DNA of 64,000 nt, from the sequence record ON528727, one strand, 5' to 3'. Each line of letters starts with the position of its first letter. Position 1 is the stretch's first letter. A program made the position numbers and the translations under genes. The stretch comes from Shigella phage ESh17. The notes under the pieces were generated by a model. It had not been told where the DNA came from and made no database searches. It saw only the letters and a list, made by a program, of their open reading frames with translations. This document shows, in pieces, positions 44,815 to 45,511 of the stretch.

Positions 44815-45056
44815 TGTCTGAACAAACTATTGAACAAAAACTGTCTGCTGAAATCGTAACTCTGAAGTCTCGTATTCTTGATACGCAGGACCAGGCGGCT
44901 CGTCTGATGGAAGAATCCAAAATTCTGCAAGGAACTTTGGCTGAAATCGCTCGTGCAGTAGGTATCACTGGCGATACTATCAAAGTTGAAGAAATCGTTG
45001 AAGCTGTCAAGAATCTTACTGCTGAATCTGCTGATGAAGCAAAAGATGAAGAATAA
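44814..45056 (+). CDS. 57A: Tail fibre assembly chaperone gp57A
   Basis: 80 aa, T4 gp57A size, coiled-coil. Confidence 0.85.
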
Positions 45057-45511
45057 TGGAATTTAAAGACTTTTCAACGGGTCTTTATGTAGCAGCTAAG
45101 TTTTCAGAATTAACACTTGATGCGCTGGAAGAACTCCAGCGCTCTTTACGTGTTCCTAATCCAGTTCCTAGAGAAAAAATTCATTCGACCATATGTTATT
45201 CAAGAGTAAATGTTCCGTATGTTCCATCAAGCGGAAGTTTTGAAGTAGCTTCTTCTGGACATTTAGAAGTATGGAAAACACAAGATGGATCGACTCTTGT
45301 ACTTGTGCTAGATTCTGAATATCTGCGCTGTCGACACATGTATGCGCGGGCACTAGGTGCTACACATGATTTTGATGATTACACACCGCATATAACATTG
45401 TCTTATAATGTTGGGCCCTTATCATTTAGCGGTGATGTACAAATTCCGGTCGTATTAGATCGTGAATACAAAGAGCCTCTTAAACTCGATTGGGCAGATG
45501 ATTTAAAATAA
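45056..45511 (+). CDS. 57B: 2H phosphoesterase gp57B (Acb1 anti-CBASS nuclease family)
   Basis: 151 aa; two H-x-[ST]-x motifs (KIHSTICY and TPHITLSY); T4 57B position. Confidence 0.75.

Follow-up and report, generated by a model that had tools for sequence, protein, structure and literature searches.

The window analysed here is a stretch of 64,000 nucleotides from Shigella phage ESh17 (sequence record ON528727), and gene 57B lies in it on the plus strand, preceded by gene 1 and gene 57A in the order also found in T4 and T6. A sequence-only reading had reported at this place a 151-aa ORF carrying two H-x-T motifs and had assigned it to the 57B position; the ORF listing and the residue positions confirmed the former, and the presence of gene 1 and 57A directly upstream, as in T4 and T6, confirmed the latter. 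The coordinates of the features are given in Table 1. The first motif, KIHSTICY, occupies residues 41-48 of the window protein (nt 45176-45199) and the second, TPHITLSY, residues 110-117 (nt 45383-45406). Two minus-strand ORFs within 57B (45168..45353 and 45196..45339) were rejected as mechanical calls without supporting evidence.

Table 1. Features of the gene 57B locus and of related genes elsewhere in the window (positions are those of the 64,000-nt stretch).
Feature	Position	Strand	Remarks
Gene 1 (dNMP kinase)	44089..44814		Upstream of 57A
gp57A (tail-fibre chaperone)	44814..45056		Immediately upstream of 57B
57A stop / 57B start overlap, ATAATG	45053..45058	+	TAA shares one base with ATG; sequence read, T4 comparison
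Gene 57B (assigned as acb1), CDS	45056..45511	+	ATG start, 151 aa plus stop codon; ORF listing, Pfam Acb1 PF23474
First catalytic H-x-T (H43-S44-T45), inside KIHSTICY	45182..45190	+	T4 H44/T46; catalytic role from PMC9117128
Second catalytic H-x-T (H112-I113-T114), inside TPHITLSY	45389..45397	+	T4 H113/T115; catalytic role from PMC9117128
C-terminal lid LDWADDLK, residues 144-151	45485..45508	+	T4 145-152; includes stacking W146 (T4 W147); T4-identical
Ip5-like ORF, 85 aa, MKTFKEFATK...	45584..45841	+	Matches T6-annotated Ip5; replaces ipI
DUF7412 ORF, 157 aa, starts MKTYQEFITE	54568..55041	+	Nearly the T4 IPII N-terminus MKTYQEFIAE
vs.4 (Acb2) orthologue	56644..56910	+	Inside mechanical TTG ORF 56608..56910

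The overlap of the 57A stop codon with the 57B start codon makes co-transcription and translational coupling of the two genes a natural inference. A sigma-70-type scan of the region 43900-46100 revealed no promoter-like site directly upstream of 57B, which fits co-transcription with 57A. Promoter-like sites in this region as a whole were not above background (10, as compared to 7.8 ± 3.2 in shuffles), and the single terminator-like site found there was also at shuffle background. An Rfam scan of 40000-52000 returned only tRNAs, none of them overlapping 57B.

Comparison of the window protein with gp57B of T4 (NP_049750.1) by BLASTP revealed identity at 151 of 151 residues. At the nucleotide level, 5 of the 456 positions of the ORF differ from T4, all of them synonymous, and a single nucleotide differs from T6. 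The annotated T4 protein possesses one additional N-terminal Met, and the difference in length is accounted for by the start region: T4 reads ...GAAGAATGATGGAA, where the ATG is doubled (ATGATG) and the 57A stop codon is TGA, whereas the window reads ...GAAGAATAATGGAA, with a single ATG (in ATAATG) and TAA as the 57A stop codon, the redundant first Met of T4 having been lost. Since the window has one ATG fewer, any residue number in the window protein equals the T4 number minus one. All nine published functional residues of T4 Acb1 were found in the window protein at this offset. H43, T45, H112 and T114 correspond one-for-one to the T4 tetrad H44, T46, H113 and T115, so that the refuting outcome named with the sequence-only reading, His motifs out of register with the active site of Acb1, did not occur; the stacking aromatics Y12, W74, F107 and W147 of T4 correspond to Y11, W73, F106 and W146, and the adenine-reading E141 to E140. 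The window and T4 loci thus agree at every catalytic, stacking, adenine-reading and lid position, as well as in the place of the gene after genes 1 and 57A.

The family assignment agreed with this comparison. The Pfam profile Acb1 (PF23474) matched residues 8-149 of the window protein over profile positions 1-144 of 144, with a score of 202.7 bits against a cut-off of 27 bits (E=2.6e-60). The best sequence match in the PDB was 7T26/7T27 (Acb1), with E=4.1e-62 and 68% identity over residues 8-148. These entries represent Acb1 of Erwinia phage FBB1, without ligand (7T26) and with 3'3'-cGAMP (7T27), and the FBB1 protein shares the HxT/HxT tetrad and has a compact 2H fold with a C-terminal lid onto which the window protein can be aligned with a single one-residue indel. 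The two proteins differ in about one of every three residues, FBB1 Acb1 has Phe at T4 position 74 where the window has Trp, and its host belongs to a genus other than that of the window phage. A compact 2H fold closed by a C-terminal lid is accordingly what the alignment to a solved structure predicts for the window protein. The fold rests on this crystal-structure alignment because a single-sequence AlphaFold2 model (pLDDT 37.9, pTM 0.30) was uninformative and was discarded. A weak PDB match was also obtained with 165-aa entries named 'Anti-CBASS protein Acb1' (9Q2G/9Q2Y; E=0.0044 for 9Q2G). Such divergent viral 2H phosphodiesterases, among them the PDE-8 and PDE-9 group, have the fold class and the HxT motifs in common with the window protein, but the kinship is distant.

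The earlier suggestion of a 2H-phosphoesterase signature of the Acb1 type was therefore upheld by PF23474, by 7T26 and by identity with T4, yet it understated the case: since the window protein is identical to T4 57B, the gene of which is named acb1, it is Acb1 itself and not a protein that merely resembles it. The ORF almost certainly represents acb1, the T4-type gene 57B, and would encode a small single-domain 2H phosphodiesterase directed against CBASS signals. Acb1 is already known and has been experimentally characterised in T4, and there is nothing new in the window gene.

Homologues of 57B were detected by tblastn in 1,470 of 50,697 phage records, 498 of them at a protein identity of at least 99%, in phages of Escherichia, Klebsiella, Acinetobacter, Vibrio, Aeromonas and others. 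We aligned nine sequences, namely the window protein, T4, the FBB1 crystal chain and proteins from six divergent loci, the identity to the window protein falling from 68% for FBB1 to 30% for Salicola phage SCTP-2. The columns invariant in all nine include H43, T45, P111, H112 and T114, and also G9, Y11, R93 and E137; at the remaining stacking positions, each homologue whose alignment extends that far has an aromatic residue. The gene order 3-1-57A-57B is kept in five further T4-like genera that belong or are related to Straboviridae (Muldoonvirus, Krischvirus, Tulanevirus, Lazarusvirus and Schizotequatrovirus), and was not found at the distant locus of Salicola phage SCTP-2. Synteny with genes 1 and 57A is typical of Acb1 but does not define it.

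The biology of the T4 protein is well described. The 57B product was found by activity-guided fractionation as the 3'3'-cGAMP degrader of T4-infected cells and was named Acb1 (Hobbs et al., Nature 2022, PMC9117128). The cGAMP-degrading activity becomes visible about 15 minutes after infection with T4, and loss of acb1 abolishes cGAMP cleavage in infected cells (PMC9117128). T4 lacking acb1 grows normally in the absence of CBASS, but suffers a more than 300-fold defect on CBASS-carrying E. coli (PMC9117128). In the enzyme, the bases stack on Y12, W74, F107 and W147, the N6 of adenine is read by E141, and in FBB1 Acb1 the bound ligand is covered by a lid made up of the C-terminal residues 145-152 (PMC9117128). 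The tetrad H44, T46, H113 and T115 carries out a metal-independent two-step reaction via a cyclic phosphate, cutting 3' of adenosine; the double mutation H44A/H113A abolishes catalysis by T4 Acb1, and cGG, cA4 and 3'2'-cGAMP are not cleaved by the T4 enzyme (PMC9117128).

Because the proteins are identical, the experimental results obtained with T4 carry over to the window Acb1. Following the T4 model, Acb1 made during infection would hydrolyse the cyclic di- and trinucleotide messengers produced by the CBASS CD-NTases of the host. The substrate would be held in a U-shaped pocket between the conserved aromatics with the lid closed over it, as in the structure of the FBB1 homologue, and one adenosine would be read by the conserved Glu (E140 in the window protein) and rotated to let its 2'-OH attack the 3'-5' phosphodiester next to it. 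Metal-independent acid-base catalysis by H43, T45, H112 and T114 would then yield a linear product with a 3'-phosphate, by way of a cyclic phosphate intermediate. With the signal gone, the CBASS effectors (nucleases, phospholipases and others) would stay inactive, and the cell would not commit suicide before the phage cycle ends. The window allele is expected to hydrolyse those CBASS cyclic di- and trinucleotides that contain adenosine, and to rescue the phage from CBASS, as shown for the identical T4 protein.

A rival reading is that the biologically important targets of Acb1 reach beyond CBASS or differ from it, including cA3 of type III CRISPR and 2'3'-c-di-AMP, with this breadth possibly being a liability via Panoptes. 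Cleavage of cAAA could let the phage evade type III CRISPR systems that signal through cA3 (Hobbs et al., PMC9117128). 2'3'-c-di-AMP is among the nucleotides that T4 Acb1 degrades, and over-expression of the enzyme activates Panoptes; T4 Acb1 lacking residues 145-152 does not activate it, which the authors take to mean that the lid is needed for catalysis (bioRxiv 10.1101/2025.08.21.671373). PDE-9 also degrades 3'3'-cGAMP (Doherty et al., bioRxiv 10.1101/2025.08.21.671373), but in contrast to over-expressed T4 Acb1, which triggers Panoptes, it spares 2'3'-c-di-AMP and does not act as a trigger (bioRxiv 10.1101/2025.08.21.671373). Fewer colonies were obtained with the OptSE operon when acb1 was expressed (PMC12657218). 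During infection, however, Panoptes defence was unchanged when acb1 was deleted from T4, acb2 being the trigger (PMC12657218), and the sole infection phenotype demonstrated for T4 without acb1 is specific to CBASS (PMC9117128). We consider it unlikely that targets of this kind are the important ones. We regard as similarly improbable the fuller proposal that in this phage, with its Acb1 and Acb2, Acb1 has a physiological substrate or a cost beyond CBASS (cA3, or host or decoy 2'3'-c-di-AMP, degraded in the course of infection), with the nuclease and the sponge perhaps being mutually tuned. A wider substrate range adds to the anti-CBASS explanation and does not replace it. Were a role beyond CBASS true, it would be equally valid for T4, the Acb1 of which is identical, and the window adds nothing unique in this respect.

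The labels attached to 57B orthologues in public records raise a different reading, namely that the product is a 2',5'-RNA ligase or a LigT-type RNA repair enzyme. They vary between databases: many GenBank and RefSeq records have 'hypothetical protein' or 'RNA ligase' (the latter in RefSeq, with T4 NC_000866 among them), others 'putative phosphodiesterase' or 'RNA ligase/cyclic nucleotide phosphodiesterase', and 'anti-CBASS protein Acb1' is used only occasionally. The 2H fold and the HxT motifs are indeed common to both families, and the window protein gives a weak match to 2_5_RNA_ligase2 (PF13563; E=0.11). That match, however, reaches 13 bits against a cut-off of 27 bits and covers residues 80-122 only, as compared to 202.7 bits for PF23474, and the identical T4 protein has been identified biochemically as a cyclic-oligonucleotide phosphodiesterase (PMC9117128). 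'RNA ligase' is here an automatically assigned name, carried over at the level of the superfamily. An RNA ligase at this locus is very improbable; by these scores, membership of the window protein in LigT or PF13563 is not supported, while the common 2H superfamily fold is not in dispute. The value of the present assignment to Acb1 lies in correct annotation, the 'RNA ligase' label being misleading for the founding anti-CBASS nuclease.

The chance that two H-x-T motifs merely co-occur in an unrelated small ORF is negligible: at least two such triplets do arise in 2.2% of composition-preserving shuffles of the 57B protein, so that the pair alone is weak evidence and the motif count only a lead, but the full-length matches to the Acb1 profile, the Acb1 crystal structure and T4 Acb1, together with the invariance of the motifs across divergent homologues, place them, as judged in whole-protein context, far beyond chance.

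Besides acb1, the window harbours an orthologue of vs.4, which is the acb2 gene (PMC12657218). The encoded protein is identical to T4 vs.4 (NP_049728.1) at 84 of 88 residues (95%) and matches Pfam Acb2_Tad1_hairpin with E=1.2e-19; its four substitutions (L44F, N46S, C50D and F52L) cluster at T4 residues 44-52. Acb2 serves the same purpose as Acb1, the removal of CBASS signals, but its fold and mechanism are unrelated, as it is a sponge that sequesters the signals without hydrolysis (PMC10312549). Both of the anti-CBASS genes known from T4 are present in the phage, separated by about 11 kb. Together, Acb1 and acb2/vs.4 predict resistance of the phage to many CBASS systems; this prediction bears on host range and on the design of phage therapy, and poses no new biological question.

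The Ip5-like and DUF7412 ORFs probably encode alternative injected internal proteins, given their resemblance to T6 Ip5 and to the N-terminus of T4 IPII. IPI* of T4 counters a glucosyl-HMC restriction system, according to the title of a reference in PMC4122927. The sequence-only reading had described the window as dense in likely counter-defence functions. This held good in so far as the Acb2 orthologue and the two ORFs of internal-protein type can be added to acb1; the other small ORFs of the vs region did not find such support. An ORF with a Macro domain (58593..59072, plus strand; Pfam Macro E=6.2e-8), a known T4 gene, is present at the tk.4 position, and the domain may have a bearing on ADP-ribose-based host defences. 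Another known T4 gene, a glycyl-radical (GrcA-like) ORF, occupies the vs.6 position (56068..56430, plus strand; E=2.3e-18).

The surroundings of acb1 are mosaic. Many Tequatrovirus isolates, Shigella phage SHFML-26, Salmonella phage SG1 and Citrobacter phage CrRp10 among them, carry 57B DNA that is 100% identical to that of the window. The surrounding 4.6 kb showed at best 97% identity over 94% of its length, with PaulHMueller and RB32/RB33 being the closest. Downstream of 57B, T4 possesses ipI, whereas the window has the Ip5-like gene. The diverged surroundings and the replacement of ipI indicate that the window derives from a mosaic T-even phage (Tequatrovirus) and not from T4.

A direct repeat of about 94 nt brackets the Ip5-like gene (45496..45589 and 45826..45917, plus strand), comprising 69 nt at 81% and 25 nt at 84% identity. 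One copy begins within the final codons of 57B and the other within those of the Ip5-like ORF; each of these reading frames closes with ...DLK and a stop codon. Each copy harbours TTTACA-N17-TACTAT with an upstream TG, plus a hairpin, the stem sequence of which differs between the copies. PeSL ('promoter-early stem-loop') shuffling cassettes of the PST/T4 type have the consensus TTTACW-N17-TAYWAT (PMC4122927). The repeats fit such cassettes, and the 3' end of acb1 would then lie at the edge of a hyperplastic region.

Gene content also differs from T4 further downstream. Between 54473 and 56060 the order in the window is e, the DUF7412 ORF, vs.8 and vs.7, as compared to e, ipIII, ipII, denV, vs.8 and vs.7 in T4. 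By tblastn, T4 denV (endonuclease V) had no match anywhere within the 64-kb window, and T4 ipII gave only a weak N-terminal match there, to the 157-aa DUF7412 ORF. The ORF at 55147..55734 is vs.8 by tblastn; residues 1-32 (55083..55178) and 26-219 (55147..55731) of vs.8 match in different frames, which suggests a frameshift or another start relative to the T4 annotation.

Eleven tRNA genes are tightly clustered at 47858..48876 on the plus strand (Rfam), of which the eleventh (48446..48525) is barely above threshold at 30.2 bits; T4 has 8 tRNAs annotated in the corresponding region and T6 has 7 in the stretch compared. Three consecutive overlapping ORFs (46583..47771, plus strand; 126, 99 and 171 aa) separate trna.3 from this cluster; in T4 and T6 this place is taken by trna.2 alone (about 95 aa). 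The 126-aa ORF, the first of the three, gave no Pfam match. The trio resembles an insertion within the hyperplastic region.
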